A stretch of DNA of 64,000 nucleotides from Chiloscyllium plagiosum (GCF_004010195.1 NC_057718.1:52346254-52410253), one strand, 5' to 3'. Positions 1,036 to 61,534 are shown, numbered from the stretch's first letter. A program made the numbers and translations. Notes: a model not told the origin generated them from the sequence alone.

Positions 1036-1171
1036 GACGAGAAAGTGGTTCCTGCAATGCTGGAGATTAGAGTCAAGATTAGAGTAGTGCTGGAAAAGCA
1101 CAGCAGGTCAGGCAGCATCCAAGGAGCAGGAAAATCGACATTTCGGACAAAAGCCCTTCATTAGGAATTCC
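1036..1171 (-). mobile_element. Short Penelope-derived element with degenerate hammerhead motif
   Basis: 11-bp TSD GGTTCTTCCTC (1025-1035 / 1172-1182); minus strand CTAATGA-A-GGGC-TTTT-GTCC-GAAAT-GTC. Confidence 0.8.
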
Positions 1172-1727
1172 GGTTCTTCCTCTGGCTGGGCGACTACTGG
1201 CCCAGTCCTGTCTCCATGTGAGGAAGGAGTACCTGCATTCCTGCATTGTGGTCAAGGTCCCTTACTGTTGGTGCTGAGCATGGATGACTAGGATGATGGA
1301 ATGCAAGTTTTGCCATTATCTAGTAGACTCAAACTGCTGGACCTGGCACTCCATGACAACTGCCAAACTGGCCATGAAGATAGTCAGCTGATTGCATGCC
1401 TGAGGCAGCATAGTGCCAAACCTTAGTGTCATGGTGCCCAGTGCCCTGGACAAACTTATCCCCTGTTCCTGTGTCTGCTTGTGAAATGCATGAAGTTCCT
1501 GATTGCTAACAACACTGGGTTCTCTCCTGTATGGAACTGAGTAGGTGTAGTTCTCCAAGTGCCAACAAACTGAGGGGTTTCTTCCTCAATCAGTTGCAGA
1601 GATGAGACAGTGAAGTGCTCACATGCAGGAGTCCCTGGCCCTAATCTAGATAACACTGAAATGCCAGGGTCTGAGCTGGTGGAGGATGCAGGAGGGCCAG
1701 CCTTGACAGTGTTCCACTGAGCAATCC

Positions 1728-2182
1728 GTTGCTAAGGTTTGGAGGATTTGAGCTATCGGAAGAGGCTGAACAGGCTGGGGCTGTTTTCCCTGGAACGTTG
1801 GAGGCTGAGGGGTGACCTCATAGAGGTTTATAAAATCATGAGGTCATGGATAGGATAAATAGACAGTCTTTTCCCTGGGGTGGGGGAGTCCAGAACTAGA
1901 GGACATAGGTTTAGAGTGAGAGGGGAAAGATATAAAAGAGACCTAAGGGGCAACCCTTTTTCAGAGGGTGGTGCGTGTTAGCAATAAGCTGCCAGAGGAA
2001 GTGGTGGAGGCTGGTACAATTGCAACATCTAAAAGGCACCTGGATGGGTGTATGAGTCGGAAGGGTTTGGAGGGATATGGGCCGGGTGCTGGCAGGTGGG
2101 ACTAGATTGGGTTGGGATATCTGGTTGGCATGGATGACTTGGACCAAAGGGTCTGTTTCTCTCTGTACGTCTCTCTGACTCG
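1728..2182 (+). mobile_element. CR1 (HER1-type) LINE 3' fragment
   Basis: Encodes LEDLSYRKRLNRLGLFSLERWRLRGDLIEVYKIM; 3' UTR ggaccaaagggtctgtttc and short tandem tail. Confidence 0.9.
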
Positions 2183-2395
2183 ATGATAGTCCTGTTCATA
2201 ATGACCACCATGAGCATTCAACCATTGCCTTCGAGAGACAAAAGAAAGAAAGTATCACAGGCCAAGGTTTAGAAGTTAGGAAATGTTAACAATGAATTTG
2301 CATTTGGTGGGAGAATGATCAATGCTTCTTACTTAATTTCCAGATCTCCACATGTCTGGTACCAGTCTTCACCTGCAAGGGCCAAGACCATCTTT

Positions 2396-2571
2396 GTAAG
2401 AGAGTGGAGGATCCGGAGGGAGGTCCGTTGCTGGAGGCTGCGGATTTGTTGAAGGGCCTGTGCCCGAAACGTCGAATGATTCCTGAAGAAGGGCCTGTGC
2501 CCGAAACGTCGAATCTCCTGTTCCCTGGATGCTGCCTGACCTGCTGTGCTGTTCCAGCAATAAAGTTTCAA
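2396..2571 (+). mobile_element. Short Penelope-derived element with partly duplicated hammerhead
   Basis: 14-bp TSD CCAAGACCATCTTT (2382-2395 / 2572-2585); body gatgctgcctgacctgctgtgctgttccagc; interrupts the Harbinger exon. Confidence 0.85.
2478..2515 (+). ncRNA. Minimal hammerhead ribozyme motif with intact core
   Basis: GATTC / CTGAAGA / A / GGGC-CTGT-GCCC / GAAAC / GTC / GAATC: stem I GATTC:GAATC, 4-bp stem II, palindromic ACGT stem III. Confidence 0.8.
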
Positions 2572-3941
2572 CCAAGACCATCTTTTCATGGTGGGTGAAG
2601 AGATGAATATCCCAGCTCCCATCCTGGCCCTGTTACAGACAGTTTTCTCCTGTAATGAGAGAAAAGGGAGGTACTGAGTAAGATGTAAGTGGGTGGCACA
2701 GCTGTTTAGTGCCAGTGCATTTGAGAAAAATCTGGTGAGTTGCCCTAAGTAAGTGAGCGAGTAGGCAATGCAGATGGCCAGCCGACTAATGGGTGCAAGG
2801 GAGGTAACAGCAAGTGAGAGAAGATGTCACATATAGGAGTGTGAGTGGTACAGCATTAGTCTTGAAGGAATGTGAGTGCCGAAGCAGCAAATGAGTGCAG
2901 GTGAGATTGCAGACAGCAATTCAGGGCATTTTCCCTGGTAAAGCAGAGAAGGCCAGTTACCTTCCTCCTGCTTTGTTAGATGTTTCCTTGGACCACATAG
3001 ACCACTCAGACCAGGTTGACAGAGTCTGGTGTCATAGGCTCCTCTGCTAATCATTAGGAAAGAGGATGCCTCTGCTTGACACCATCCTCAGGACCCCCAG
3101 GTCCAATCTCACAAAATAAGGTGCAAATTTCCCTTGTCCATCATGTCCAGGGCAAATATTGGCAAATAAACAGGGTAGCTCGAGACTGCCAACTTGTGAC
3201 AGGAAGTGCAACAGCCTGTTAAATGTGATGCTGACTAAGTTGGATTAGGGAGTAGTCCCTCATATTCAACTACACGTGTTTAAGAAAGGAGATTAGCAGA
3301 TTCCACACGACCCAAATTAGCAGGTCAGATACTAGGTGACTTTTATATACTGACTGATGTAACCATTTGTACACACAACATGAATCATGTACATGCATGG
3401 AATGGTCACACTCATAACATTTCTATCAAAGTGATTTGTGCTAGCCATACGGTAAATGAAGTGAGTAGATCCTGTGCAATTTTCTTTGAAGTTGAGGGTC
3501 CAGTAATACATAAAGCAGCTCAATATTATGGAGCTAAATTGGTGGTCAATGTAACATGCCACACCATTTATTTATTTTTATAATTCTGCATAAAAAATGG
3601 TATACAATTTATTGTTGATCCTAATCATAGCAAACAGAGATGAATGTTGCTCATAACTTTGGATATTATTTTGCTTAAACATAAATTGAAGCTAATTTGC
3701 AGAATGTCCTTAATTTGCAATTTGAAAAACTCTTATGTTATTACAGACAATACTAATTGTTAAAAATCATAATATATTAAAAATGTCAATGTATCTCTTT
3801 ATGTCTAAATGATTACGGTGAAGTTAGTTCATCTGCTATAATCAATCGAGTATACCTGGAATTTGATACGTAATTTATGAAATACAATTTAAACTTCATT
3901 TAAAATAATATGTTTTCTTTTGTCTCAATTACCCGTTACAA

Positions 3942-7000: not shown

Positions 7001-8635
7001 GGCTTGATAGAATTTATTTGCTGTGCTTTGTTAATTAAAGTGGTGGTTAGACTACACATTTTACTTGACAACAGATGTTTATTCCATTATAGAAAAAAGA
7101 AAAACAAACACTGTTATCTAGACAGAGAAGACAGCAAGATCTAAAACATAACAAAAAAAGATTCAACCTGGATTTTGCGAATTTATTTAAAGGACTCTCT
7201 TCTTTAAAATAAAATCCCTCATAGAAGTAACCCACACCACTTGTCTATAACTTGAAATATAAATTTCAAAACTGATATTATTAATTACAAAATCTGTGAT
7301 TAATGTGATAAATGATCATACTACAGCTCATTTTTCAAACTGGTCATGTCAAAATCTGGTAATAGCACAGATATGTCACTATCTTGAGAATATTTGTTCT
7401 TCAGCAACGTGAAAAGTAACTTTATGAATGTCTTGATATTTATTACCAAGCAACTCTGGCCAAATGGAAGACCTGCCAGAGAAATAAGGTTTCTTTTTGA
7501 CTATTTTGTTTTCTACAGCCACAGAATTGGTTAAAAATAGATCAGTCTTGACCATTCTTGAAAAGGAAAAAAAATGATCTTCTTAGAAGAACTTCCTTTC
7601 AAGAGAGGGACCTTCTTCCAGGGAGAGAAGTGGACAGAGATGAACCTACATGAAGAACACAGGGCTGGATACAGCACTAGCATTTGAAAAATACAAACAA
7701 TAAAAATATAGGAAAGTTATGAGTTATTGATTACTCAGGAATGGTTATGTGTATGTATTCAAGTGTTAAAGGAGAAAGAAAAAACTATTTTTTAGTCAAC
7801 CTGTAATTATCTATCTTATTATTACTTAAGACACTCCAGCAAAAGGAAAGAAAGAAATTTAATGATTCCATGATTTATGTAATTCGTAAGTGGGAAAGGC
7901 ATTCTTTGAATTCTGAAGTTTAATACAGAAAGTGATAGTGAGAATAGACATCAATTAAGTTAATAATTGATCATGTAATTAATTACTTAGTAATAATTGG
8001 AAATGCAGACTAACAAATCCTTGGGTCTTGATGGACTTCAAACTGGAATCTTAAAATGAGAAGTTAATGAGAACATGTGATACATTGGTTTTCATTTTCC
8101 AAGTTTTAAAGATTCAGGAATGTTCCATGAAATTGGAAAAGAGAAAACGTCACACCTATATTTACAAAGGGGGACAGAAAGCAGGAAACTGTGTCCAGTA
8201 AGCTGAACAACTTGTAAGTAAGATGTTAGAAGATATCATTAAAGACATTTTAGTAAAGCATTTAGAAAAATTCAAGGAAATGAGGTAGAATCAATATGGT
8301 TTGGTGAAAGGGAAATCATTTTTAACCAATTTATGGAGTTCTTTGAGGAGGGTCCATATATTGCAGATAAAAGGGGACCAGAAAATATCTTCCAGACTTC
8401 CAGAAGATTTTTGATAAGGGCCTTGTCAATTTTTAATTGCAGAAAATAATAACTCACAGTGTAGTGGGTAACATATTGACATAGAAAGAAGAATGACTAG
8501 CTAACAGGAAATGAAGTAGGCATAAATGGGTAACCTCCTAGTCAGGAAGAGATTACAAGTGGGTGCCACAGGGATCTCTGCCAACATGTCAATTTCGCAA
8601 AATTTATATAAATGAAGGACCGAAGGTTTGTTGTG

Positions 8636-8764
8636 GAGAAAGTGAGGATTGCAGATGCTGGAGATCAGAGTCGAACAGTGTGGAGCTGGAATAGCACAGC
8701 TGGTCAGGCAGATTCTGAGGAGCAGGAGTGTCATTGTTTCGAGCATAGGTTCTTCATTAGGAAT
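8636..8764 (-). mobile_element. Short Penelope-derived element with degenerate hammerhead
   Basis: 11-bp TSD GGTTTGTTGTG (8625-8635 / 8765-8775); gagaaagtgaggattgcagatgctggag...cttcattaggaat. Confidence 0.85.
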
Positions 8765-8806: not shown

Positions 8807-9706
8807 TGTGACTTATAGGTACTTAATAATATTTATTTTGAGGTTTTGTTTCTTGACTTAGTAAAATGTGAGTTTTCTACGTGTATAAAGTTAATAATTA
8901 ACTTGGAAGTATTGCTGTAGACATGGCAATTTCTTTTAAAATAGTATTTGAGACCAACCTTCACATTTAATTAATTTTTGTGCACCACAAATGTAGTTTT
9001 ATTAACCTTTAAATTATTTTGCAATATGGCAAAATAAATAATAGGACCTCAGAGTTTGATAGATTTCTGGACTTGTTTGTATTGAAGCTTAAGGGAAACA
9101 CCCATAACTAGACAGGCATTGTTTTATCCTTGGGTTTTTGCCTATTTAGACCAGTACTCTTAAGAAGGGAAACATATAATGAAACAACCCTTAAAAGTAA
9201 TTCTGGTTTTAGACCAGGATTGTTGGGATAAAAGCCTGAAGGGGTTACTTAATGATGCATATTTCTAGCTTCAGTTGTTAACAACTCAAAGAAGAAACTC
9301 TTTACAATTCTAGTCTATAAATTAAAGTTCCAAGTTACCTCCAGGTACCAAATTAACAGAGATGCTGGGTATGAATACTGCATAAGTGGTATTTTGGGGT
9401 ATTATTTTAGATGCATTTTGGGGACGTTGCAAAAGCTGTTATTTTTCTTTTCAATTTATAATGGGGTGTTTTTACATTTACTGTGTGCTTAAAAATCTTT
9501 GTATTTATGTTGAAAGTACATTGTTTGGTTTATTCTAATTGGTATTAATTTCTATTGTTAATAACTTTCTTTTAAATCTGCACTATTGTGTTATGTTTCA
9601 GTGAGAGACCGCTTCATCAAAACCAAACCAAACCAAATCAAAGTAAGATCTTTCGAGAGTGAGGAAAAACACAGCAAGTCAGGCAGCATCCAAGGAGTGG
9701 CTGNNN

Positions 9707-10576: not shown

Positions 10577-11572
10577 TTGCATGTTTTGAGATGATTTATA
10601 GCTCATGTTGAGGTTCTGGATGTAAGTTAGCTCATTGAGTTGGAAGGTTTATTTTCAGATGTTTCATCGCCATATTAGATAACATCCTCAGTGAGCCTCT
10701 GCTGAAGCACTGGTGTTAGTGACCTGCTTTTTATTTATGTGTTTAGGTTTCCTTGGGTTGGTGATGTAATTTCCTGTGGTGATGTCAGTTCTTGTTGAGA
10801 TGTAATTTTTAGTTCTTTTTTCTCAGTGGGTGGTAAATGGGGTCCAAGTCGATATATTTGTTGATAGAGTTCCAGTTGGAATGCCATGCTTCAATGAACA
10901 CAGTCCATCGATTTCTCAGCAACAAACCCAAACAAGCAGACAAAATGCATCCAGAAATCCTAGCCACTCTCCATTCCATCAAAGTCATCTCGGAAATGAC
11001 TGCTAGACTACTCAGACTTCTTGGCATTATGGTAGCCCAAACATCCACTAACACACCAAAACAGCAGCTAATGAAATTGAAGGACCCCACACAGACAACA
11101 AGCAAAACTAATGTCATTTACAACATATCTTGCAAGAACTGTAACAAACAGTACACTGGACAAGCAGGCAGAACACTAGCCACCAGGATACATGAACATC
11201 AAGTCGGCACAAAAAGACATGACCCACTCTCACTAGTATCCTTACATACAGATGGAGAAGGATACCACTTTGACTGGGACAACACATCCATCCTAGGACA
11301 AGCCAAACAGAGACATGCATGAGAATTCCTAGAAGCATGGCATTCCAACTGGAACTTTATCAACAAACACATTGACTTGGACCCCATTTACCACCCTCTG
11401 AGAAATAAGAACAGGCAATGACACCACCAACCCAAGGAAACCTAAACACATAAATAGAAAGCAGGTCACTAACACCAGTGCTTCACCGGAGGCTCACTGA
11501 TTATGTTACCTAGAATGGTGAGGAAAAATCTGAAAATGAACCTTCCAGCCCAGTGAGCAAACTTACATCCAG
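10577..11572 (+). mobile_element. 5'-truncated Penelope-like element with GIY-YIG remnant and inverted terminal copy
   Basis: ORF 10837-11322 NVIYNISCKNCNKQYTGQAGRTLATRIHEH...FDWDNTSILGQ; about 10615-10890 is an inverted copy of about 11325-11572; 12-bp TSD AGCTTTGAACAT (10565-10576 / 11573-11584); HHR-like CTGAGGA-T-GTTATC..GGCGAT-GAAAC-ATC on the minus strand near 10655-10695. Confidence 0.9.
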
Positions 11573-14086: not shown

Positions 14087-14186
14087 GAAAACAATGTGAT
14101 TAAGGTGTCCCCTGGTAATTAGCTGCAAGTTTTCTTTATCCCACATGAAAATAACTGGATAATTTCACTTAGTTCATTTTGATATT

Positions 14187-14371
14187 GTGATGTGGAGGTA
14201 CCAGTATTGGACTGGAGTGGACAAGGTCAGAAGTCACATGACACCAGGTTATAGTCCAACAGGATTATTTGAAATCACAAGCTTTTGGAGCACTGCTCAT
14301 TCATCAGGTGAAGTGACTTCAGTAGCACTCAGACAGCTTGTAAATCCAACTAAACCTGTTGGACTATAACC
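14187..14371 (-). mobile_element. Short Penelope-derived element (different subfamily) with inverted arm and hammerhead remnant
   Basis: Perfect 17-bp inverted repeat 14247-14263 / 14355-14371; minus strand CAC-CTGATGA-A-TGAGC-AGT-GCTCC-AAAAGCTT-GTG. Confidence 0.7.
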
Positions 14372-16069
14372 ATCTGTTTATGGCCATGCTTCTGATTTTT
14401 GGGCATATAAAAGTTTCAGCACCTCAATTTTCCATGGCATTGACTAGTGGAAGGTCTGTGTCGACATTGCCTCTGCAACCTTTGGTGCTATCCCTCCCTC
14501 CCCTTCCAGAAAGAGACAACGGAGGTGAGACTCAAACTGCAAACTCATGGGATCTTATCTGAAGAGTGAGAGAGGGCAGACTTACAGGAAACAGCAGCCA
14601 TGCTGAGGGCAATGTGGTTATCAGGAGCAAAACAAAACCAAAACTTTGCGAGTAAATCAATATTCTGTGAAGCATTCAAGTATGTGTGCTTGGCTCTTTG
14701 AAGTAATTCTTTTCATTCACTGAGTGCTGAGCAATCCTGAAAATAGCATTTTATGTGGCTATGATTATTATTGAGCACCAACAGAGCACAAATGATGGAA
14801 ATGTGGATCTCTGATCGCTGCCTCATCCAAACATCAGTAACTGCACCTACTGTGCTACAAATGATCCCATAACATGCGGTGGTTTTAAAAATGGATGGGA
14901 TTTAAAGTTTGGAAGTTCCCATTCCATTTCCATCTCCCGTTTGCCTGAGCTTTATGCAAAAAAAAAACCTGACATAAAACTTACTCTTGCATATCTTTGT
15001 TCTTCATTAACAACTATTTGGCTGTGTAATAAATTTACAAAGAGAAGTAAGAAAAATAAAGAAGACAAGAAAAATAAACAAAAATAGGAAAAAAAAGGAA
15101 AAGAATTAAGGAGAAAGATAAAGGAAGGAAAAAAGAAAAAATGCAATTACAGTACTTTGTGTGACTTCAGGCCATCACTGAAGTATAGTCACAATTACAA
15201 TAACATATTTTTAAAACTTAAATCAAATGAATCACCAACTGTACATTCTGTTAAAGTAACAGTGAGATAGGACCTGAAGAAGTAAGGGATATCAGAACAA
15301 CACAAATGTTATTGAACTGCAAGCAAGCAGCAAGCTCAGGGGATCAATAGATTGGTGTCGATTTGAGCATCTCTAGAATTAGCAGGCCACCGCACCTAGT
15401 TTTAACACTTGCTTTGCACAAATGAAATCACATTTTAACTCACCCTGTTATTTTTGAGAACTTGATTAATTTCACTAGCATTACTGATTAAACTCACCAA
15501 AAACAGTGTTAGGTCCAGCAATTAATAGTACAAGATATTAATAATCAGTTATTGGTATTTCTTAAATGATAGAATAATTGCGACTGACTGACAATGAATC
15601 TCTCAGGTTCAGAAAGTTAACAATTTAAACTGTCGATTCTCATTGGCTCAAGTTGAAAATTGTTGTTGGAATTCAGAAAATTTACCATTTTCTTAGTTTA
15701 ACTTGTCTCTGCACTCTCTCCTTTTTCTTCTCAGTGAATTGTCCACTTAGTTCTAAATTATCCAATGTTGTTATTTGAAGAGATACACTGTCGATACAAA
15801 CTTACCACTGTCTTAACTATTCGATAACCAGCTTTATTTTTTGTAAGCTAGGGCCAAAAAAAGTACAAAAGGCTGAAGTTTTCTGGAAAAGTCTACCTTA
15901 GAATTTATGAATAATGGATACATCTACATTAACATTAATATCCTTCATCAGATTAATCAAATATATCTTAGACTGAAACAATATACTTCACAATATAGCA
16001 TGGTTTAAAAAGTCCACCTGTACAAATTTACCTCTCTTCATTGTACAGGATAGTGACATTTAGAAAATA

Positions 16070-16960: not shown

Positions 16961-17850
16961 TATTTCCCTCCCCACCCCTATGTGCTTTCCGTAGGGACCG
17001 TTCACTCTGCGACTCCCTCATCAGTTCCACACTCCCCACTAACAGCTCCTCCAAACCTGGCACCTTTCCCTGCAACAACAGGAAGTGTAGCACTTGCTCC
17101 TACACCTTCCCTTTCACCTCCATCCAAGGCCCCAAACAATCATTTCAAATCTGGCAGGGATTCATCTGCACTTCTTCGACCTGATCTATTGCATCCGTTG
17201 CTCCTGATGTGGCCTCCTCTACATAGGAGAGACCATGAGCAAACTCAGGGATTGATTTATGGAGCACCTGCACTCTGTACGCTGCAATCAACAGCACCTT
17301 CTTGTTGCCAGCCATTTCAACTCCTCCTCCCATTCCCTTGGCAACATGTCTATTCTGAGCCTCCTCCATTGTCAAAATGAGGCCACATGCAAACTGGAGG
17401 AATGAGGCCTTATATTCCACCTCAGGAGCTGACAACCCAATGGCCTCAACTTAGAATTCCCCAGTTTCAAAATCTTCCCATGCCCAACCTTATCCCATGT
17501 CCACTCCTCCCTCTCCTCCTGCCTCTTTGACCTGACTAAACCTGTTCATCTTCCTTCTCACCTATCTATTCCATCTTCCCCAGTGACCAATCACAATAAC
17601 CCTCTATCTGCATCCACTTATTACCACCCACCTATCTTTCCCACATCCACCTATCACCATCCAACCTATCTTTCCCCCAGCCCCACCCCCTCTCTCTATT
17701 TCTGAGTTCCCTTTCCCCTCCGCAGTCCTGATGAAGGGTCCTGACCCAAAGAGTTGACTTTCCTGCTCCTCCAATGCTGTCTGACCTGTTGTGCTCTTCC
17801 AGTTTCACATTGTATTGACTCTGATTTCAGCACCTGCAGACCTTACTATG
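16960..17850 (+). mobile_element. Penelope-like element 3' fragment (GIY-YIG remnant, UTR, hammerhead remnant)
   Basis: PLCAFRRDRSLCDSL, GTFPCNNRKCSTC, LIYCIRCS*CGLLYIGET; C-rich UTR; AGTC-CTGATGA-A-GGGTC-CT-GACCC-AAAGAGTT-GACT at 17724-17759. Confidence 0.9.
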
Positions 17851-19587
17851 TCCAACTGGCCCACACTACCTCCAACTGGATAAATACTTGCTCAGCCACT
17901 AATGACTACATCCTGTGTGTGAATTTTGAAGACAAAGTAACTAATATATGCAATAATGCATATTCCAAAAGATTGAAGTCTTTAAATGCTAATATTTCAT
18001 CAGCCCTTCATTGAGTCATAGAGTCATATGGGAGTAGCCAAGGCCCAACCATGTTCAGATGTTTCATAACTAATCCTCCCTCCATCATAAGGTCAATAGT
18101 GGGGAAATTTGTTAATGACTGCACAATTTTCAGCACCAACCACAACACCTCATGGTGAGAAACTCTTCACAAGATTTGATAAAACTGATATATCGCTAAT
18201 TTCTATAAAAATCAACTCCTGGTCTTAAAACGTCCAGTAAAGAAGTTGATTGCAGTAGGCTAGACTCCACCTATTCTGATACATTGCTAAATTTCCTACA
18301 GATAATTGGTACCTATCCCCAGTCACCCAGAAGCAATCTCAAACCACAGTGGTGAGAAATTCATTCACATTGTGCCCTTTCAAATGGTTTCCTCCCATTG
18401 CTCTCCTTAATCCTTCAGTTACTTCACTTATTGATCTGAAGGCCTTGATACCATTTTTGATGGCAGATCATCATTTTTGTCGGCTTGGGCATGTGCTTAG
18501 TGACAAGTTGGATGCTACAAAAACTCAGGTATGTAATTTAACATCAGCTGAACGAGCATATTGGATTTTATTTTACACCTCTTCAGCACCTCTTTGTGGG
18601 ATTGCTAGCTTCCAAGACAGAGAATGAGGGAAAACCTCTAACACTACATCATGAATCTTAATCAAAGACATATAGATATAAGAAATTTAATTGAACTGGG
18701 AGAAGAGTTTGGATTTGTATTCAGGCTGGATCCCACACTATCATAGGCTTCAGTAAGTAAGTCAGATGTCAGTTGTTATTCTTGTCCAGAGTGAAACGGG
18801 ACTTCAGTTTTGTCAGCAGAACAAAGAAAAACCTACAAGATATAGCTGATACTCTGAAAATGCTTAATTATGTCCACTATGCCACAAAGGTACTAACCTT
18901 ATATTCTTCAACTATTTTCATGAAGATAGGCCATCTGTAAAAAGCATTGTGGTTCATGTATATCAGAGATTTTATAAACCAAAGCAGGCTATAATTTCAG
19001 CCAAGGTTACGTAACAAGCTTTTTATGAGATCTGAAATCCAGACTATTGAAACAACTGAACCCTGAGGAAACCGTCACTTACTGGTCTCTGACCTCTTTT
19101 ATCAATTATACAATAATATACATGGGTTTCAAATTTTTGCAGTTTTTACAATTGATACTTCAAAGTGTCTGGATGTTTGAACACTTTTATTGCCCTGTAG
19201 TGAAAGGTTTCTTTTCCAAGTCAGTGAAAAGTAATGAATAAAGTCTTGACTTTGAGTAGACATCATCCTTGAATTGAGGAACAAATGACAATTATCATCA
19301 TGTGTAACATCAGATAAATAAAGTATTCTTTCAGCATTTATGAAGTGGTTTCATTATTCTGTGTATTCCTCTTTTTGTGATGCTCTTTTTTTTTCAAATC
19401 AGAGGAAACCGCGTGATCCATCTCACTGACATCTGACACAAAGGGTGGAAAATTCACATTCATTTAAATTATGAGGAGAGTAATGGGTAGGAATGTAAAT
19501 GATGAAAGAGTGGACTTTGCTGTGAGTCTTTAACTGAACTACTGCTGGTCCCTTGATAAATTGGTGAGGGAGTTTGAGATCATGTAC

Positions 19588-22160: not shown

Positions 22161-22350
22161 CAAAACAGAAATTGCTGGAGAAACTCAGCATGTCTGGCAG
22201 CAGAGAAAGCACAGTTAACGTTATCACTCTGATGAAGAATCACTGGATTCAAAAGGTTAGCTCTGCTTTCTTCCCATGGATGCTGCCTGTCCAGCTGAGT
22301 TTCTCCAGTAATTTCTGTTTTCGTTTCTGATCTCCAACATCTGTAATTCT
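22161..22350. mobile_element. Inverted pair of Penelope-derived ends with hammerhead remnant
   Basis: Inverted arms 22162-22189 / 22294-22321; CTGATGA-A-GAATC-ACTG-GATTC-AAAAGGTT from 22229. Confidence 0.75.
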
Positions 22351-22679
22351 TCGTGTTATTATATTGGTCGGGGAATTTGGAAGCAACATGGAAATTTGGT
22401 GCAGAGTGGAAGGAGATGCATTCTGTTTGTCTTTTTGGCTTTAAATTGTGAGGGCTTTTTTACAGGATAAAATGAAGCCCAGGATCAGGGGTCCAGCAGA
22501 AAAGACAGCGTAACATTGCAGGGAAACTGCTAGTTCGTTTGTTGGTAAGAGTTACTAATCTATCAATTACAAGTTGAAGGCAAATAGGGGAAAATCTTAT
22601 AGATTACAAACTAAAAGACCTGTAAGATTTAAACAAAATCATATTAAGAACTAAGTAAATGAAACAGAGATGTAAGATG

Positions 22680-23615: not shown

Positions 23616-23655
23616 TAGTGGGGAGATGGGTTCAGTTGCATAAAAAATAACATGG

Positions 23656-24564
23656 GGTCATCTACATTTCTGCTACTTCCAATGCAATGCCATCACTAGA
23701 CACGTATTATCCTCCCCTCTGTTGTCTGCCTTCCTCAGGAACCATTCCTTTTCAGGAACCTTGGTCTACTCCTCCTTTACTCCCAACACCACGCCACACC
23801 ACCACGGCATCTTCCGATGTAATGGCAGAAAGTGTAACATCTGTCAGTTTACTTCCTTCCTCCAAATATCCATGGCCCCAGACATACCTTCCAGATATAG
23901 CAATAATTTACCCGCACTTTACTCAATCTAGTCTACTGTGTTCACTGCTCACAATGTGGTCTCCTCTACACTGGGGAGACGAAGTGCAAAATGGGCAACC
24001 ATTTTGCAGAACACCTTTTGCAAAAATGACCCTGAACTTCCAGTTGTCTGCCACTTCAACACAACATTTTCCCTGGTCAACATCTCTGTCTCAAGCTTGC
24101 TGCAGTGCTCCAGTGAAGCTCAGTGCAAGCTGAAAGAACAGCACCTCATTTGGAAACCCTGCAGCCTTTTGGACTCAATGGTGAGTTCATAACTTCAGGG
24201 CTGGAGCCCACCTTCTCTCATGTCCTTACCCTAACCTTCACACTCTAAGTCTTGTCATCACATGAGCTATTACCACAAGCAATCCATTGCCAGAGACTAA
24301 TGGTACCCAATAGCAGCTTTTCATTCACCCAGGCTGACCTTTATCCATTCTTTTGTCTACCAAATTACTTTTCTCTCCCTCTGGGCTCTATTTCCACCTA
24401 TCAATTACTCCTTTCCCCACCCCTTCTTTAGATATATGCCAACATTTTGTGAGCTACAATCAGTTCTGAGGAAGAGTCACTGAACCCGAAAGGTTAATTC
24501 TGCTTTATCTTTGCAGATGCTGCCAGACTGATGAGTTTTTTTCCAGCAATTTTGATTTTTATTT
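23656..24564 (+). mobile_element. Penelope-like element 3' fragment
   Basis: GIFRCNGRKCNIC; LVYCVHCSQCGLLYTGETK..FAEHL (GIY-YIG); CTGAGGA-A-GAGTC-ACTG-AACCC-GAAAGGTT from 24466; flanking AAAATAACA repeat (23644-23652 / 24565-24573). Confidence 0.9.
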
Positions 24565-24609: not shown

Positions 24610-25496
24610 GTGAAGAAGGCATTTGGTATGCTTGCCATAATGGACAATAAGTGAGGATTGCAGATGCTAGAGATCAGACTCAGCAGTATGGTGCTGGAAA
24701 AGCACAGCAGGTCAGGCAGCACTCGAGGAGCAGGAGAATCAACATTTTAGGTATAAGACCTTCATCAGGAATTCTGATGAAGGACTTATGCCTGAAACAT
24801 CAATTCTGCTGCTCCTTGGATGCCACTTGACCTGCTGTGCTTTTCCAGCACCATACTCTTGACCCTTTATTGGGCAGTGCATTGAGTGTAGGTGTTGGGA
24901 GGTCATGTTGCAGCTGGACAGGACATTGGTTAGTTCACTTTTGGAATATTGAGTGCAGTTCTGGGCTCCCTGCTATAAGAAAAATGTTGTGAAACTTGAA
25001 CGGGTTCAGAAAAGATTTACACGGATGTTGCCAGGGTTGGAGGATTTAAGCTGTCGGGAGAGACTGAATAGACTGGGGCTACTTTCCCTAGAGTGTCAGA
25101 GGCTGAGGGGTGACCGTATTGAGGTTTATAAATCATGAGGGGTATGGAGAGAGTAAATAGGCAAAGTCCTTTTCCAAGGTTGGGGTAGTTGGGCCTAGAG
25201 GGCAAAGGTCGGAGGGGAAAAGCTTAAAAGGGATCTAAGGGACATCTTTTTAATGCAAAGGGTGGTGCATATATGGAATGAGCTGCCAGAGGAAGTGGTG
25301 GAGGCCGGTACAATTACAACATTTAAAAGGCATCTGGATGGGTATATGAATAGGAAGGGTTTGGAGCGATGTGAGCCAAATGCTGGCACATGGGTTTAGA
25401 TTTATTTCGGATATCCTTGGATAAGTTGGACTTGGATAAGTTGGACAGAAGGGTCTGTTTCAGTGCTGTCTATCTCTCTGACTCTGTGAACTCTAT
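24610..25496 (+). mobile_element. CR1 LINE 3' fragment
   Basis: VQFWAPCYKKNVVKLERVQKRFTRMLPGLEDLS...RLRGD.IEVYK; 3' UTR and tail; interrupted near 24637-24863. Confidence 0.9.
24649..24863. mobile_element. Palindromic head-to-head Penelope-derived element with two opposed hammerhead motifs
   Basis: Centre TCATCAG-GAATT-CTGATGA (24762-24780); perfect 30-bp outer arms 24685-24714 / 24828-24857. Confidence 0.85.
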
Positions 25497-25586: not shown

Positions 25587-25910
25587 TAACTATCTACGAA
25601 GAGTCTCCATTAATAGCTATTTACACTCCCCAGTCAGATCTTTATCCATTCCTTTGTATGTCCAACTATTCTTCTCTCTCTTTTCATTCTATCCCTACCT
25701 ATCATTTACTCCTTCCCCTCTTCCCCACTCTACCTTCTGCAGATAAACCAACATAATTCCAGCTACCACCAGTTCTGTGGAAAGGTCGCTGGACCCAAAA
25801 CTTAAGCTCTGATCACTCTCCACAGATACTGCCAGATCTCTTGAGTTTATCCAGCAATTTCTGTTTTTTGTTTCTGATTTATAGCGTCTGCAGCTCTTGC
25901 AGTTTTTATT
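25587..25910 (+). mobile_element. Penelope-derived 3' end with degenerate hammerhead
   Basis: TSD TATGGAAAAT(A/T)AAC (from 25573 / from 25911); CTGTGGA-A-AGGTC-GCTG-GACCC-AAAAC near 25775. Confidence 0.75.
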
Positions 25911-27778: not shown

Positions 27779-27811
27779 CTGATGAAGGGCTTTTGCCCGA
27801 AACGTCGATTT
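27779..27811 (+). ncRNA. Hammerhead catalytic core (intact core, native stem I 5' arm lost)
   Basis: CTGATGA-A-GGGC-TTTT-GCCC-GAAAC-GTC-GATTT. Confidence 0.7.
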
Positions 27812-27903
27812 CGAAGCTCCTTGGATGCTGCCTGAACTGCTGTGCTCTTCCAGCACCACTAATCCAGAATCTGGTTTCCAGCATCTGCAGTCATTGTTTT
27901 TAC
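27782..27903 (+). mobile_element. Short Penelope-derived hammerhead element inserted in CR1 RT
   Basis: 12-bp TSD CAGGGTGACCTG (27770-27781 / 27904-27915). Confidence 0.9.
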
Positions 27904-29861: not shown

Positions 29862-30358
29862 AGGGTGTAGTGGTAATGTCAGTGGACTAGGAATCAGGAA
29901 GCCCAGGCTCATTCACTGGGGACATGAGATATCTCTGATGATGAGTCATCTAGACTTGAACCATTAGCTTGCTCTCTCTCCGTAGATACTGTCTGACCTT
30001 CTGTGATTTCCAGCATTTTTTGTTTTTAGTACAGATTGAAAGATCTGTAGTAATTTTCTCCAACATGGGATAGCAGCAGTTAGAATATAAATTCAGTTAT
30101 TATATCTGGAATTGAATGCTCGTTTCATTTATAGTGACCATGAAACTATTGTTGATTGTTTAAAGACCCATCTTGTTCACTCAATTTCTTTTAGGGGAGG
30201 AAATCTGTTCTCCTTGCCCGGGCTGGTTTAAGTAATTCTAAACCCATGCCAATGTGGTTGATTCTTAACCTGGTTCTGAAATTTCTCAGAATGACAATCT
30301 ATTGAAGGGTGATGGCCAATGAATGCTGACCTTGCCAGTGTCATCCACATGAAACAAA
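29862..30358 (+). mobile_element. Second tRNA-derived SINE family copy, interrupted by an HHR element
   Basis: Head gtgtagtggtaatgtcagtggactag; body agggaggaaatctg..ccttgcccgggctgg; tail aatgctgaccttgccagtg. Confidence 0.65.
29932..30062 (+). mobile_element. Short Penelope-derived element with hammerhead remnant
   Basis: 10-bp TSD ACATG(A/G)GATA (29922-29931 / 30063-30072); CTGATGA-T-GAGTC-ATCTA-GACTT-GAAC from 29935. Confidence 0.75.
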
Positions 30359-32144: not shown

Positions 32145-32840
32145 GTTGGAGAATTTGAGAATTGCTAACAAAAGATACATTTTGCCAAAGCTTTTCATCT
32201 TGCACTCATCAGGGTACTTGGCAAAAATACAAATTCAAGGAGAAAAACAAACATTTCTACTGCATGAGCAGAGAACGCCGAATGGTTGGCAAGTAGATTC
32301 TGACTGGGAGAGGGAATGCCATGGAGAATGCACCCATTAGTGCTGTTTTATAGTTAACAGCCATTGCAAATGAATTACATTTGCTGGATAATCCTGAATT
32401 TACAAGGAATTATGCTGACAACAAGTTTAGGATTGTCAATCAGGCTCACAATGTATTCTACCTGGATATACTAGAACTATTTATATATTAATACTTAGGT
32501 CTGATCATGCAAACAGAAAAAAACATGCTACACCTGTTTTAACTCAACAAAACAGGTACAGCCATTTGCTGGTTCATTTCACAGGTCCATACGTTGACCA
32601 GTTAGAGTTAATCTGTCTTATTTAAAATTTACCAAAGCCTGGCCGTTAACCATCAATCAGAATTAATGGATTCATTCTCTATGGCAAGACTTCTAACAAT
32701 CAGAGTCCAGTTGCCAACAAATTAGCTTTCTCTTCTCATGCAAGATAGATGTCTTTCCACTGGAATTTATAGTTATGACAATTTGCAAGGTGCCTTAATA
32801 AAAATCTTCAGCAAAAGGTTTGCTTTTTCAGCAATATTTT
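32145..32840. mobile_element. Old Penelope-like element with inverted termini
   Basis: About 32150-32330 is a diverged inverted copy of about 32670-32835; internal NYADNKFRIVNQAHNV resembles a GIY-YIG C-terminus; minus-strand CTGATGA-GT-GCAAG-AT-GAAA-AGCTTT at 32187-32212. Confidence 0.65.
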
Positions 32841-33234
32841 ATGATTATGACAGGACCAAGTACTAAGGAACCAAGCATTTCAGCTTACAAAGGCCTGATG
32901 CAATGAAATGCAGAAAACTAATGTATAATGAAGCACATTTTAAATGGTACTGTTTAAACATAATTTGGTCGGAAAACCATTTAATTCTAACCAACAGTTA
33001 TAAATAAATTGTATTGATTCCAAAATAACTCTATTTATTGATATCCTTACCATCCCAATTACTTGCTATATTCTTGCGCTGAATCTCCTCTACCATAGTT
33101 ACAGACCTACCTCGTGGTGATTCTATAATCTGAAGTTAACCAAAGAACTCAATTTAACAGGAATTATTAAGAATGACCTTTGTTATCAGTACTCTTCGTA
33201 CTTGATTTTAGTTCTTTGTTTCCCCAGTGGAAAA

Positions 33235-42524: not shown

Positions 42525-44975
42525 TTTTTTATTCATTCATGGGAAATGGGTTTCACCCACATTTATTGCTTATCCCTAGTTGTCCTTGAGATGGTAGTAA
42601 TAAGCTGCCTTTTTGAACCGCTGAAGTAATGTGTCATAGGTAGTTACACAATGCTGTCAAGGAGGTAACTCCAGGGTTACGACCCAGCGGCAGTAAAGGA
42701 ATGGTGTTATCTTTCAAGTCAGGATGGTGAGGGGCTTGGAGGAGAATTTGCAGGTAGTGGTGTTCCCAGGTATCTGCTGCCCTTGCTCTTGTGGGATTGG
42801 AAGATGCTGTCCATGGATCTTTGGTGAATTGCTGCAGTGCATCTTGTAGATAGTACACACTGGTGGAGTGATGGAATGTAGGCTTAGTGCCAATTAAATT
42901 AGTTGCTTTGTCCTAGACGGTATTAAGCTTCTTAAGTGTTGGAGCTGCACACATTCAGGCAAGTGGAAAGTATTTCAAGACACTCCTGACTTGTGGCTTG
43001 TAGATGGTGGACAGACTTTGGAGAGCAGTGTTCTTAGCCTCTGACATGCTCTTGTAGCTACTATATTGTTATGATCAGCCTAGTTAAGTTTCTAACCAAT
43101 GGTAACTTCCAGAATGTTGGGATTCAGTGATGATAAGCTGAAAATGTGTTGCTGGAAAAGCGCAGCAGGTCAGGCAGCATCCAAGAAGCAGGAGAATCGA
43201 CGTTTTGGGCATGAGCCCTTCTTCAGGAGCCCTTCCTTCTTCTATTCAGTAATGATAATACCATTGAATGTCAGGACAGTGGTAAGATTGTCATTTAATT
43301 GAGATAGTCATTGCCTGGCATTTGTATGGCACAAAGAGTACTTGCTACGTTTCAGCCCAAGCCTGGATATTTTCCAGATCTTGTTGAATTTTGACACAAC
43401 TGCTTCAGTATCTGAGGAGTCGCAAATGGTGTTGAACATTGTGCAATCATCGGCGAATATCCCACTTCTGACCTTATGATGGAGGGAAGGCCCATGAAGG
43501 GAAGAAGATTGAAGAAGCAGCTGAAGATGATTGGGCCTGGGATATTATCCTGAGGAACTCGTGTGGAGATGTGCTGGAGCCTTGCTAACTGATCAACTAT
43601 GAACGTCTCTATTTGTACCAGGTATGATTCCTAGCAGCAGAGTACTTTTTTCACCTAACTGCTATTGAGTCTAGTTTTGCTAGGGCTCCTTGATGCCATA
43701 CTCAGCCAAATGCAGCCTTGATTTCAAGGACTGTCAGTCTAACCTGCTCCCTGGAATACAGCTCTTTTATCCATGTTTGAACTAAATCCATAATAAGGTC
43801 AGGAACTGAGTGGCCCTATCAGAACACATACTGGACATAATCAGCAGGTTCCTGCTTGATCGCACTGTGAATGACACCTTCCATTACTTTACTGATGATC
43901 GAGAATAGACTGGGATGCAGGTAATTGGCCAGGTTGGGTTTGTCTCATTTTCTTTTGTATTTAGGACATACCTGGGCAATTTTCCACATTGTCAGGTAGA
44001 TGCCGGTATAGTACTGGAACAGCTTGGCAAGGGGACCGTCAAGTTCTGGAACACAAGTCTTCAGTACTATTGCTGGAATATTCTCAGGGCCCAAAGCTTT
44101 TGCAGTATCCAGTACTTCCAATTGTTTATTGATGTCATATGGAGTGAATCAAAGTGGCTGAACACTGATATCTGTGATAGAGGAGGCTGAGATAGATCAA
44201 CAACTCAGCACTTCTCGCTAAAGATTGTTGTAAGTGTTTCAGCCATTTTATTCCCCAATGACGTGCTGGGTGGTCCCATTATGGAGGATGCGGATATTTG
44301 TGGAGGCTCCTCCTCCAATGAGTTGTTTAATTATCACCACCATTCACATGACTGCAGAACTTCAATCTGATCCAGTGATTGTGGGCTCGCTTAGCTCTGG
44401 ATATCACTTGCTGCTTATGCTGTTTGGCATGCAAGTAGTTTGGTTTGGTAGCTTTGCCAGGTTTTTCAATATTTTTAGGTATGCCTGGTGTTGCTCAGGC
44501 AGATCCTCCTGTACTCCTCACTGAACCAGGATTAATCCCCTGGCTTGATGTTACTGGTTAAATGGAGGAAATGCCAAGCTGCGAGGCTGCAGATTGTGTT
44601 GGAATATGCCTAATGGATGCCCAGTCTTGAGTTTCGAGATCTGTTCAAAGTCTGTCCTATTTAAGACAATGATAGTGCCACATAACGCCATGTAAGGTTT
44701 CTCAAAGTAAAAGGAGGAATTTGCCTCCAGAAGTATGATGCAGTGGTCACTCTTACTGACACTGTCATGGACAAATGCCAGATTGGTGGGGATCTGATCA
44801 AGTACATTGATCAAGTTCCATCACCACGTGCTACAGACCCTGTCTAACAGCTCTGTTCTTTGTGACCCGACCTGGTAGATCAATAATGTTGCTGCCACGC
44901 CCCTCATAGATGTTGAAATCCCCCATCCAGAGTACATTCCGTGCCCTTGCTACCCTCAGCGCTTCCTCCAAGTAC
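42525..44975 (-). mobile_element. Second non-LTR LINE family, long decayed copy (APE endonuclease, RT, 3' UTR)
   Basis: Endonuclease motifs NVLWMGDFNI (near 44920) and SKSDHC (near 44750); RT LPSIIRSEVG.FADDCTMF (about 43435-43490); 3' UTR ends atgaatgaataaaaaa; clade not determined. Confidence 0.85.
43137..43243 (-). mobile_element. Short Penelope-derived hammerhead element
   Basis: 15-bp TSD ATTCAGT(G/A)ATGATAA (43122-43136 / 43244-43258); minus strand CTGAAGA-A-GGGC-TCAT-GCCC-AAAAC-GTC-GATTC. Confidence 0.85.
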
Positions 44976-47654: not shown

Positions 47655-47881
47655 AAACAGAAACTGCTGAAAAAACTTTCTCTCTATGGAGAGAAAGCAG
47701 AGTTAATGTTTCAGGTCCAGTAACCCTTATTCAGAACCAAAGACTCTTGAGAAGAACCGTTACCAGCTGCAAACCATTAACTCTGCTTTCTCTCCATAGA
47801 TGCTACCAGACTTGCTGGATTTATCCAGCAATTTCCATTTTGTCTCTGATTTCCAACATGTGCAGTTATTTGGATTTTTTT
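47655..47881. mobile_element. Inverted pair of Penelope-derived ends
   Basis: Perfect 25-bp inverted repeat 47684-47708 / 47775-47799; TSD AAAAGAACAA (47645-47654 / 47882-47891); minus strand CTGAATA-A-GGGTT-ACTG-GACCT-GAAACATT. Confidence 0.8.
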
Positions 47882-54388: not shown

Positions 54389-54533
54389 GAAAGTGAGGAC
54401 TGCAGATGCTGGAGATCAGAGCTGAAAATGTGTTGCTCAATTCCTGAAGAAGGGCTTATGCCCGAAATGTCAATTCTCCTGCTCCTTGGATGCTGCCTGA
54501 CCTGCTGCGCTTTTCCAGCAACACATTTTCAGC
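54389..54533 (+). mobile_element. Short Penelope-derived hammerhead element with 5' inversion
   Basis: 14-bp TSD TATTCCCT(G/C)GGGTT (54375-54388 / 54534-54547); 18-bp inverted repeat 54420-54437 / 54517-54534; CTGAAGA-A-GGGC-TTAT-GCCC-GAAAT-GTC at 54444-54471. Confidence 0.85.
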
Positions 54534-55025: not shown

Positions 55026-55568
55026 TCCCTTTCCTTCATGGGAAATGATTTGGTGGGGATGAAGGTAACGTCTTTGCCACTAGTCTTAAAGAAACCAAGT
55101 GAAGTTGAGGATACAGCAGTTTCCATGAAAGATTCTGTATCTAACATAGATTACCAATCAAGCTCTAGTGCATTGAGGTCCCAATCCTATGTCCAAAATG
55201 TTTCAGAAAGTTAGAAGTATTCTGGATATAAAACAAGTTTCATAGTCATAAAGAGCTTAGGAACTGTATTATCAGGCTCAGAAGACAATGGCGAGGGCAA
55301 ATTACAATGAGTATTCCCAAGACTGGGTCAAAGGACTAGAAATTCATTTGTTTATCACCAGGATTCACCTGATGAATTGACCTCATCAGCTTTGATCCCT
55401 TTGCTCATGAACATGAGAGACAAATCTTCCAAAACAAAGAGATAATTTTGGGAGGAACTAATAAATATTTTAGGTTAGATTACATATTTGACTTCTGGTA
55501 ACTGAGCAGAGTAGCCAGTAGAGGAGCTCAGAAGCACCTGTAAACTTGACAAGTAGCCTTGAGAAAAG

Positions 55569-59200: not shown

Positions 59201-59289
59201 CCAACTTCTGGTGCGGCTTTTTAATAAACCAATACAAACATTTAAACAAGGTCATGTGAACTGAAGTAAGCCCACACTTAAAATTCTGA

Positions 59290-60970
59290 GGGTAGTTTTC
59301 TGTTCCCTTGAGCCAGTGTGGGAAACGTGAGAAATATGAAAAAATATGGTGACAGCTAAACTCACCTAATTTTTCTGCAGCTCACAATTTCCTCTCCTTC
59401 CTCCAAGAAACAAAATGGCACTAATTCTGGATATGCCTGGTTGTGGCAGCTAACGGCTTGTTGCTGTGGGCCTTTGGCCGACTCTTGACTTCACCATGTT
59501 CATGTTGTATGGATACTATCTTCTTCCATTCTTCATCCACAGAAGTAAGCCTCATCAAACGATCAGTCTCACCACATCATCACAGCTGCTTTCAGACCTA
59601 CCTCACAAAACACTTCAGTCCTTCAGGATTTCATTTCAAAGCTTACGTACAGTGATGGCTTGCATGGTTCTGCCAGGTTGCTTTCTGTGCACAGACACAT
59701 GGATCTCCTGCATCTCTGGCTCTGAACTTAATTTCTTCATGCTCACTCAACTTGCACTTTGAAGCTGCCAGAGTGTGTGGCTTGCATTGCTTTTCAATGC
59801 AGAGGGAGAAGCAAGCAGCTTGTGAAGGTTGGAGTACTGAGCAGTCAAGTGGTGGGCATGTTGCTGTAGAGCACCATGCTTTGTCAATGCTAAATACATG
59901 TCAAACACTCTGCATTTGCTTCAACCAAATGACCATGCGACAAAGTTGATGGTCACTTGTCCTTAGAGGAGTTACGTGGGCTTTGGTAAATCAGGGAATA
60001 CCACCATAGTCATTCAAGGGCTTGTCCAATTATTGCCCAGCCAACTAGCCGTGGTAAATCCTGCAGTTCAAATACAACCAGATTAGGGATTGCAGGTAAG
60101 TCAGTTAGGGTACTGTGGAAATATCAATGCAAGGGGTGTTCAGATTCTTCCTGCATTGAGCAAAGGGACGGACTAAGTATGATGGAAGTGGATGGAAGAG
60201 CAGGAAGAGGTGAAGCATGAGGAGGAGAGTTGGAGAATGTTTCCACTGAATGAGTAGAAAGCACTGATAACATGAAGAGCTTGTTGCTAGGAGAATTAGG
60301 TGAAAGTTGCTGATTGGACAAGATGCATGCAGTAATGCAAGTTGTGGTACATGAGCCTTGGTGAGATAAGTGTGCAGTGGTGAAGTTAGAGTAAGGGATA
60401 GTCCCTGGGAATGTGAGGGAGCAGAAAGAAGATGGTGACACTTAGCCTTGAGGAGCACAGAAGATCATTAACCTTCTTCCTGCACTGCTGGGCTTTTCTT
60501 TTTACCTGTGACACAACACTGACACAATTCAGGCTGGCTGGGTTTGGATTGATTTCCTTTCGTGGTCAGTAGGAGAAAAGACTGCCCTTCCCTTCCACCA
60601 CCATATCCACCAATACCACCAGGTCGCTGTCAGTGAAGTTGGCTGCCAGGTTCCCTTTATGGGCCATGGACATAAGTGATAACAGTTGTACACCATTGTG
60701 TGAACTTAGTGCCTGGCTTGTAGTATCTGAAGTGGTATTCAGCTGAGGTTTAAATATGGCACCCGTGGCGTAAACATCAACAACATCCAGGAGCAGCAAC
60801 CACTCTCAGTTTTCCACCAGTAAGACCGAAGCTAAAGAAGCCGGATGCAGAAATAATGAGATGAAAAGTATAGGATTGCGTTAGGAAAGTCTACATGGGT
60901 CATTGCAATCCAGTCATTGTGAATCTCACCCAATAAAACACAAGGGTCAAAACTATGGAAAAATTCATTC
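59290..60970 (-). mobile_element. Second decayed Harbinger-type element with Myb/SANT first exon
   Basis: MAHKGNLAANFTDSDLVVLVDMVVEGKGSLF (about 60667-60575) and QCRKKVNDLLCSSR (about 60487-60446); outer boundaries uncertain. Confidence 0.65.
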
Positions 60971-61075
60971 CTGTATCTTTTATGTTGGCTTTACCCATTT
61001 CAATCAGATTGATTGTTTATGATTGAGGGGAGAAACCATGATCATCACTCTCTGTAAAGGAAAACAAATCAGAAA

Positions 61076-61169
61076 CAAAAACAGAAATTGCTGGAAAAGC
61101 CCAGCAGTTCTGGCAGCATCTGTGAAGAGAAAGCAGAGTTAACATTTGAGTCCAGTGTCCCTTTTTTAG
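61076..61169 (-). mobile_element. Short Penelope-derived end with highly degenerate hammerhead
   Basis: TSD AACAAAT(C/T)AGAAA (61063-61075 / 61170-61182); body matches the 22162 and 47655 type. Confidence 0.7.
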
Positions 61170-61534
61170 AACAAATTAGAAAATTGGATGTTCTTTTGCT
61201 GCAGTACTCTACCCTAAACCGGTGTGCAATTTTATAACACATGGTCAGGTGAGAATGCAGTCCACTGCCCTGGAAAACAATGTGTTTGTAAACACAGGAG
61301 AGTCCCTACTTCAGTCTCCTACCTATAACAAAATCTCCGCCGTTGAGCATGAAACATGATCTAGAGTTCCTAATCTGCAATGCAGCACCTAACTCTATGA
61401 GTGAGCAAGGGACCTTCCTTAGGAAGGGTTGTGTAAATGCTTTTGCCTCTTGACATCATATGAGCACCTTATCCTGCAGCATACAGCAAGTAGTTCCCAT
61501 GCTAACTTGACTAACCATTGCACTGTGACCCCAG

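Follow-up and report, generated by a model that had tools for sequence, protein, structure and literature searches.

Short insertions derived from Penelope-like elements (PLEs) are densely scattered through a 64,000-nucleotide stretch of the shark Chiloscyllium plagiosum (GCF_004010195.1 NC_057718.1:52346254-52410253; hereafter the window), and most of them begin at one and the same structural position, the outer base pair of helix I of a minimal hammerhead ribozyme. The window is repeat-rich vertebrate DNA with 39.8% GC, in which self-comparison and profile searches disclosed 18 PLE insertions, confirmed as the ends of Neptune-type PLEs together with one Poseidon-like copy. Among the insertions of the two larger families (A and B) with an intact 5′ side, 11 of 14 start 1-4 nt before the core base C3, and the single insertion D does likewise. 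The explanation favored here, which has about an even chance of being correct, is that these stubs are run-off copies generated by internal priming on PLE RNA that ends at helix I.

Short insertions and their 5′ boundary

The insertions are grouped into family A with nine members (A1-A9), family B with six (B1-B6), and the single copies C, D and E. Families A and B are related, as revealed by cross-matches down to E ~1e-11 in the profile searches, and no further free-standing fragment was returned by the profiles at E <0.001 in the window, the other matches falling on inverted arms, on A4, a fragment that borders an assembly gap, and on a 30-nt duplicate inside A2. An earlier reading of the sequence without database searches (the sequence-only reading) had counted about 18 PLE-related insertions; its 18 listed motif positions were all recovered within a few bases, and the PLE origin that it proposed was corroborated by the linkage to GIY-YIG remnants, the tail, the inverted arms and the minimal hammerhead.

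What adjoins the 5′ boundary is either a target-site duplication (TSD), or the joint of an inversion, or else a short stutter, and the stubs possess no common 5′ leader. No A or B insertion ends between -5 and about -185, while the copies that do extend upstream past the hammerhead reach 765 nt (A5), ~810 nt (B2) and ~185 nt (B3). Both arms of the head-to-head insertion A6 stop at the identical place. The 5′ junctions of A2 and A8 are short stutters of the hammerhead's own sequence (a 30-nt hammerhead duplicate at 2448-2477, and a repeat of the purine stretch at 43231-43243), which look as if they came from template jumps at the end of a template. If truncation were geometric, with a mean anywhere from 50 to 1000 nt, the binomial probability of 11 of 14 ends falling in a 4-nt range would be P <1e-14; this range was picked from the data, a choice that cannot close such a gap in P. 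The accumulation of the A and B ends in one 4-nt window thus supports a discrete short class in the window rather than a smooth truncation continuum. The "discrete SINE-sized unit" of the sequence-only reading, modeled on short interspersed elements (SINEs), is retained as a size class, but its independent SINE-like mobilization is so far not.

The 3′ ends are bimodal as well, with seven arms terminating 80-99 nt and eight arms 120-136 nt from C3. These two classes, which lie ~35 nt apart and correspond to whether or not the known PLE "tail" is present, are common to the stubs and to the copies linked to an open reading frame (ORF). In all five two-armed inserts with both ends placeable (A6, A9, B1, B5 and C), one arm is tailed and the other untailed, the extra stretch amounting to ~32-40 nt. 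Such features agree with the described anatomy of Neptune-clade PLEs, for which two reports list 5′-truncated copies, pseudo-long terminal repeats, an inverted arm and a 30-40-bp tail (PMC8557442, PMC3846280). An A box of RNA polymerase III (Pol III) was detected in 0 of 15 arms and a B-box-like word in one of 15, and no A-tail was present. A peptide beginning MLPDLL... behind the hammerhead was considered as an ORF start and was not confirmed, its frame differing between subfamilies; apart from translations of the window, it occurs in none of the 190 collected proteins.

Credible TSDs of 9-15 bp flank 11 of the 18 insertions: A1 (11 bp, 1025-1035/1172-1182), A2 (14 bp), A3 (11 bp), A7 (12 bp), B5 (10 bp), B2 (9 bp) and C (12 bp), and, with one mismatch, A8 (15 bp), A9 (14 bp), B6 (13 bp) and B3 (14 bp). 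In the null, a score of at least 10 was attained in 20 of 400 random intervals by the wide search and in 5 of 1000 by the narrow one. The TSD of B4 is weak (10 bp, one mismatch), 175 of 1000 random intervals scoring equally high, and the search yielded none at A4, A5, A6, B1 and D. A 9-bp repeat around E was dismissed because E proved to be a larger inverted repeat, and it is no better than chance, 12.5% of 400 random intervals doing as well. An overlap of 3-4 nt with the TSD is seen in A7 and B6. Nine TSD-flanked inserts of 94-324 bp lack sequence for reverse transcriptase (RT) or endonuclease (EN), in line with the at least nine non-coding units announced earlier, with the reservation that B3 (324 bp) is an ordinary 5′-truncated copy.

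Anatomy of the copies

Short stubs on the plus strand are A2 (2396..2571), with a short 3′ end, an intact core and a minimal-hammerhead fold; A7 (27782..27903), tailed, with an intact core, located inside a fragment of a long interspersed element (LINE), its TSD overlapping its first bases as microhomology; A9 (54389..54533), untailed and with an intact core; and B4 (29932..30062), tailed, whose helix II is GAGTC:GACTT. On the minus strand, A1 (1036..1171) possesses the long, tailed 3′ end, a helix I start plus 3 extra nt and the core change G5A; A3 (8636..8764) is tailed with a decayed core and begins exactly at -4 beside its TSD; A8 (43137..43243) is untailed and 94.6% identical to A9; and B6 (61076..61169) is untailed with a decayed core, its TSD overlapping both ends. 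A4 (9663..9698, minus strand) is a fragment of a family-A end, interrupted at 9704-9746 by the assembly gap (3 N) and a poly-G run.

A6 (24649..24866) is a head-to-head pair, both arms of which start from helix I and are joined at an AATT palindrome, the left arm being tailed and the right untailed. In B5 (47655..47881), also head to head, the left arm begins at helix I and is untailed, while the right is tailed and carries a decayed hammerhead. B1 (22162..22362) is a two-armed stub consisting of a plus arm with the whole hammerhead (22229) and tail, and an untailed inverted arm truncated within the hammerhead. An inverted 49-nt arm bearing the tail precedes A9, and an inverted leader of 52 nt (2396..2447, minus strand) precedes A2. 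D (14185..14377) is a two-armed stub that belongs to another family with helix II GAGC:GCTC, and its minus arm begins at helix I. E (32145..32860) is the inverted-repeat remnant of yet another hammerhead-bearing family, both arms of which run at least 150 nt upstream of the hammerhead, and is hence not a short unit.

Coding remnants and the template of the stubs

GIY-YIG remnants are joined to the hammerhead end in three copies. A5 (16961..17852, plus strand) is a 5′-truncated Neptune copy composed, in order, of a zinc-finger linker, a broken GIY-YIG domain, a 3′ non-coding part, the hammerhead (17728) and a tailed end. B2 (23653..24564, plus strand) is likewise 5′-truncated, with a GIY-YIG remnant and an untailed end behind the hammerhead at 24466; B3 (25587..25910, plus strand) shares with it the ~185 nt upstream of the hammerhead (25775). 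C (10577..11572, plus strand) contains the third remnant, a hammerhead near 11497 and an inverted arm (10577-10898) made of a tail of ~36 nt and ~190 nt from upstream of the hammerhead. The sequence-only reading had placed GIY-YIG remnants at 16960 and 23656, and both are present, that of C being additional. Pfam GIY-YIG was matched by A5 with E 0.0086 and by C with E 0.00095, neither of which reaches the gathering score. By blastx, A5 and B2 match shark RT-EN proteins, and a predicted protein close to the EN remnants leads on from them to proteins from rays and from whale, zebra and bamboo sharks. No copy bearing RT was found in the window; the shark protein relatives do bear it. A Cys-rich, zinc-finger-like linker precedes the EN of A5 (CNNRKCSTC), with a similar one in B2, and is absent before the EN of C. 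According to a survey, this motif between RT and EN marks Neptune and Nematis and is absent in Poseidon (PMC8557442). A5 and B2 would then be Neptune rather than Nematis, and C, as it does not possess the linker, looks Poseidon-like.

The inverted leader of A2 offers a clue to the template. Read on its opposite strand, these 52 nt translate to IRSLQQRTSLRILHSL, for which the best match among the 190 collected proteins is the N-terminal part of Neptune in a whale-shark predicted protein. The score of 36 against this 125-residue part was reached by one of 3000 random stretches of the window and by two of 3000 shuffles (P ~0.001), and in full-length homologues the matched region sits ~75-100 residues into the ORF. 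This likeness points to an ORF-bearing RNA as the template of A2, with ORF sequence probably located ~250-300 nt behind the hammerhead. In addition, a zebra-shark predicted protein (P0007) runs from the GIY-YIG domain into this type of hammerhead end, which ties the terminus to autonomous elements. As a side observation, a whale-shark gene model, prostatic acid phosphatase-like isoform X1 (P0190), ends in ~125 residues of Neptune N-terminal sequence, reflecting either exonization or an artefact of the gene model.

Proposed mechanism and its alternatives

Ordinary Neptune-type PLEs may have produced the stubs as dead ends, by means of their own RT-endonuclease. As shown for Poseidon of the anole, the protein would nick the target and start the cDNA at one of two internal RNA sites downstream of the hammerhead, which would correspond here to the two classes of 3′ ends. 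The copied RNA was uncut by the ribozyme, since every arm reaching the hammerhead crosses the cleavage site. With a start site close to the transcript's 5′ end, RT would run off the RNA at the outer edge of helix I, the run-off point at -4 being an A in an initiator-like CA context, and would leave a fixed stub of ~95 or 130 nt that resembles strong-stop cDNA; where the start site lies in a downstream repeat, RT would continue into the 3′ non-coding part and the ORF, giving rise to A5, B2 and B3. Priming of both nicked strands would afford two arms head to head, one per start site, and the staggered cut would produce the TSD of 9-15 bp. We infer that the boundary is the end of the RNA, and also its start site.

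Public reads (runs X1, X13, X21 and X17) were aligned to A5 at 80% likeness; depth is not a copy number. In X1, the depth of the terminus is up to 258,000 versus 7 on the flank, with a similar profile in a second organism; an excess of three to four orders of magnitude over single-copy flank indicates that this end is very abundant. The joint 17723/17757, which links the two strands of helix I, is the only opposite-strand joint among the 15 joints shown (279 more lie outside that set); it adjoins -4 and was seen in two organisms, in two DNA contigs each. In the contigs a C stands at 17722 in 86% of the depth, so the A5 subfamily reads CCCAGT at the boundary, which we take to fit an initiator consensus. 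A downstream promoter element inside the hammerhead was sought by eye and not supported.

Several observations weigh against run-off from such an RNA end. In families C and E, the 5′ ends do not fall at the hammerhead, and the GGGC:GCCC subfamily has no ORF-linked copy in the window. The ORF origin of the A2 leader is read from 16 residues in one copy, the target having been chosen after the likeness was recognized, and a profile of 23 N-terminal regions from distant homologues detects nothing in the window, this leader included. The MLPDLL... frame behind the hammerhead is not kept across subfamilies. The reads on A5 show no clean step in depth, with 2,001 just upstream, 5,015 over the core and 5,822 one bin further up, and the GIY-YIG bin, at 329,000, surpasses the terminus peak, which implies that depth follows local likeness; the A5 depth decides nothing on discreteness and gives no sign of a stub excess for this subfamily. 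None of 214 RNA reads in both orientations was at least 95% alike, and no pile-up of starts appeared, the source being a polyA single-cell library unsuited to this use. The CAG context of the boundary equally fits a splice acceptor. Finally, in Drosophila virilis Penelope the start site precedes a 75-nt intron by 46 nt and is situated ~120 nt upstream of helix I (PMC2377424), and that intron is stated to end at helix I (PMC4209133), so that the shark arrangement would differ.

The same boundary might instead reflect a programmed truncation hot spot, at which cDNA synthesis or its resolution on a long PLE RNA stops at helix I, be it because the cDNA folds back on its copy of helix I, because it anneals at the AATT palindrome or at microhomology in the target, or because the endonuclease cuts. 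The palindromic joint of A6, the 3-4 nt which A7 and B6 share with their TSDs, and the connection of helix-I strands by the joint 17723-17757 are compatible with such a stop, and precedents are given in the literature, namely palindromes at inverted junctions with proposed self-priming in rotifer PLEs (PMC3846280) and the preference of the anole enzyme for ATT (PMC11167929), the first bases of the family-A stubs. However, helix I comprises just 4-5 bp and is opened by RT from its 3′ strand first, A3 adjoins its TSD at -4 without microhomology, and B and D have neither ATT nor a common palindrome at their boundaries and yet end at the same structural place; this route is considered unlikely. 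A little less likely is an independent non-autonomous family, in which stubs or longer ORF-less masters possess an internal promoter together with the internal RT start site; transcription would begin at -4, and copying would take place in trans, as for a SINE. The discrete size, the TSDs, the several subfamilies and the very high abundance would suit such a family, and it is on record that PLE promoters are internal (PMC2377424), that non-autonomous PLEs exist (PMC8557442) and that repeats alone are able to mobilize DNA in trans (PMC3846280). Evidence against it is provided by the ORF piece in the A2 leader, by 3′ ends identical in class to those of ORF-linked copies, by the missing Pol III boxes and A-tail, and by the reported need of the anole protein for RNA beyond the copied part (PMC11167929), which stubs would lack.

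The two remaining alternatives are far less credible. A spliced template, with a 3′ splice site at helix I setting the boundary behind a very short or variable first exon, is regarded as very unlikely: all three ORF-linked A/B copies do show CAG two bases before the core (17724, 24462 and 25771) after a pyrimidine-rich stretch, and the D. virilis intron ends at helix I (PMC4209133), but the stubs have no common 5′ leader, six of eight short family-A arms show AT or ATT rather than AG at -4/-3, and PLEs are known to retain introns on moving. In family B, acceptor-like runs also occur behind the cleavage site. Least probable of all are retrozyme monomers, that is, reinserted circular RNAs from hammerhead-cleaved tandem repeats. 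A type I hammerhead and TSDs longer than 4 bp would fit them, and monomers derived from PLE repeats are known among vertebrate non-LTR (long terminal repeat) retrozymes (bioRxiv 10.64898/2026.07.22.740005; PMC7229834). Nevertheless, a hammerhead-bearing tandem repeat is found in 0 of 23 rows of the tandem-repeat (TRF) search of the window, the only repetition being the partial 30-nt duplicate in A2; none of the 15 arms begins or ends at the cleavage site; a direct-orientation tail before untailed copies, as expected from a circle, precedes 0 of 4 (A2, A8, A9 and B6); and the ribozyme is minimal rather than canonical, with mostly decayed cores. The label "retrozyme-like" of the sequence-only reading is accordingly not supported. 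No circular-RNA joint came from the 214 RNA reads among the 15 joints shown, where a polyA library cannot show circles.

The run-off explanation allows a bolder extension, which remains rather doubtful: transcription of shark Neptune would start at the first base pair of the hammerhead, RT would prime ~95/130 nt in, and the commonest product of transposition would be an integrated strong-stop cDNA. If true, many thousands of genomic copies would each document, to the single base, where the element starts and where either priming site lies; initiator, ribozyme and priming site would be combined in the stub, and some subfamilies might re-propagate as a minimal retroposon driven by RNA polymerase II, which would represent the missing step from PLE repeat to retrozyme.

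Hammerhead ribozyme

The motif is a hammerhead of minimal type I with palindromic stem III, as known from metazoan PLEs (PMC4209133) and as the sequence-only reading had recognized. One A following A9 is unpaired, helix I and helix II span 4-5 bp each, and a palindromic ACGU replaces helix III. Helix II of family A is GGGC:GCCC or GGGT:ACCC, and all five helix-II pairings quoted previously are present. Helix I is AGUC/GACU in A5, AGUU/AACU in B, AUUC/GAAU in A2 and UCAC/GUGA in D. The 11 core bases are intact in five of 15 A/B arms, two of which retain the palindrome too, and the latter was found in three of the 15. The predicted fold of A2 is a hammerhead at -11.2 kcal/mol, while the predicted two-strand minimum free energy structure of A2 differs from a hammerhead dimer. 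A strict CTGANGA-stem-GAAA scan gave five sites, two of them among the listed motifs, most of which it missed because of the bulged A. One lone CTGATGA-stem-GAAA match on the minus strand at 48114, unlisted earlier and without likeness to families A-E, is probably due to chance. Rfam at E up to 5 returned no hammerhead and seven weak microRNA or small nucleolar RNA matches, three of which fall on inverted repeats.

The covariation suspected earlier for the stems was upheld on three of five measures over 16 arms. Paired cells amount to 80.2% versus 72.0±1.9% in shuffled alignments (0 of 500 as high), the covariation score is 0.415 versus 0.275 (0 of 500), and cells changed on both sides number 21 versus 8.9, above all 500 shuffles; these three also exceed every slid control. 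The number of covarying pairs (92 of 500) and the pair types (335 of 500) are not above shuffles. Most double changes represent the single A/B split; the alignment used has row D displaced by one column, and for several stubs it includes flanking sequence at columns -4 to -2. Within family A, the core carries 7 mismatches in 99 positions and the sequence behind it 34 in 360 (P = 0.55). As the core is thus conserved no better than what follows it, the covariation reflects selection in the parent elements and not on the copies, which are decaying and look dead.

Relation to known systems

The inserts are real and represent a variant of the PLE insertion anatomy already known, apart from a single feature that is unexplained. 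They share with EN-containing (EN+) PLEs of the Neptune clade the GIY-YIG domain, the Cys zinc-finger linker, the hammerhead end with optional tail, head-to-head inverted arms, TSDs of 8-15 bp and solo repeats (PMC8557442, PMC3846280). They differ in that most copies here have one 5′ boundary at helix I, whereas the published copies show scattered truncation points; moreover, rotifer solo repeats are without TSDs and the shark copies possess them.

The minimal hammerheads of metazoan PLEs (Cervera and De la Pena 2014, PMC4209133) agree in the 4-5-bp helix I, the unpaired base between A9 and G10.1, the palindromic 15.2-16.2 region, the covarying families and the opposite-strand pairs 100-700 bp apart, and thousands of solo copies are attributed there to truncated PLEs; in the portion of that survey at hand, no shark is among the genomes named, and insertion boundaries or TSDs are not analyzed. 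Poseidon of Anolis carolinensis provides the closest mechanistic parallel (Frangieh et al. 2024, PMC11167929). In that study, cDNA synthesis by RT is initiated downstream of the hammerhead at two internal sites, between which the tail lies; priming occurs on both strands of the target, RNA that has not been cleaved serves as the main substrate, and the protein requires RNA beyond the first start site, its binding motif extending past the copied part. The two 3′ ends, the ribozyme-uncut templates and the priming of both strands are thus alike, whereas the clade is another one, the sections consulted describe no run-off class of short insertions, and the anole ORF starts inside the hammerhead, a placement that was not confirmed for the shark families. 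Non-LTR animal retrozymes resemble the stubs in being short, without RT or EN, with a type I hammerhead, kinship to PLE repeats and existing monomers (PMC7229834; bioRxiv 10.64898/2026.07.22.740005), but they are tandem repeats cut to unit length and circularized, whereas the copies here have a minimal ribozyme and neither tandem arrays nor cleavage-site ends. Pol III-transcribed, LINE-mobilized SINEs differ from the stubs in boxes and tail.

Solo minimal hammerheads, opposite-strand pairs, tails, inversions and non-autonomous PLEs are already in print. Neither a run-off class nor a 5′ boundary fixed at helix I was found in the openly accessible papers searched, Repbase and Dfam not being among the sources. 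With a sharp helix-I boundary in ribozyme-uncut copies, the template RNA can be read from the copies in the genome, which permits a direct in vivo test of the internal-priming model; if the explanation is true, many vertebrate solo minimal hammerheads would be accounted for without a retrozyme cycle, and repeat annotation in sharks is affected.

Searches beyond the window and neighboring repeats

Pattern scans of metagenome and viral contigs returned 0 matches. A 19-mer occurred at 48 metagenome loci, 27 of which score with the family-A profile, nearly all by the seed word alone and without a convincing hammerhead, and these were dismissed as chance. No RNA data set was listed as matching 53400-55400.

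The stub A7 lies in a nest at 27179-28961, where two halves of a SINE (27179-27276 and 28742-28961) are split by a CR1/L2-like LINE containing A7, from which the order of the three events can be read. Similar SINEs, presumably of the type named HE1, are located at 3939, 13739, 29260, 30624, 33343 and 62098. A9 is situated between direct repeats of ~260 bp with 76% identity (53067-53323 and 58511-58774), which also enclose, near 56900-57800, a region resembling by eye a decayed LTR-retrotransposon pol. A purine-rich region at 5300-7600 likewise resembles, by eye, a decayed gag-pol region of an LTR element, and a pyrimidine-rich minisatellite with a period of ~40 at 46448-46698 is reminiscent of the 3′ non-coding part of A5.

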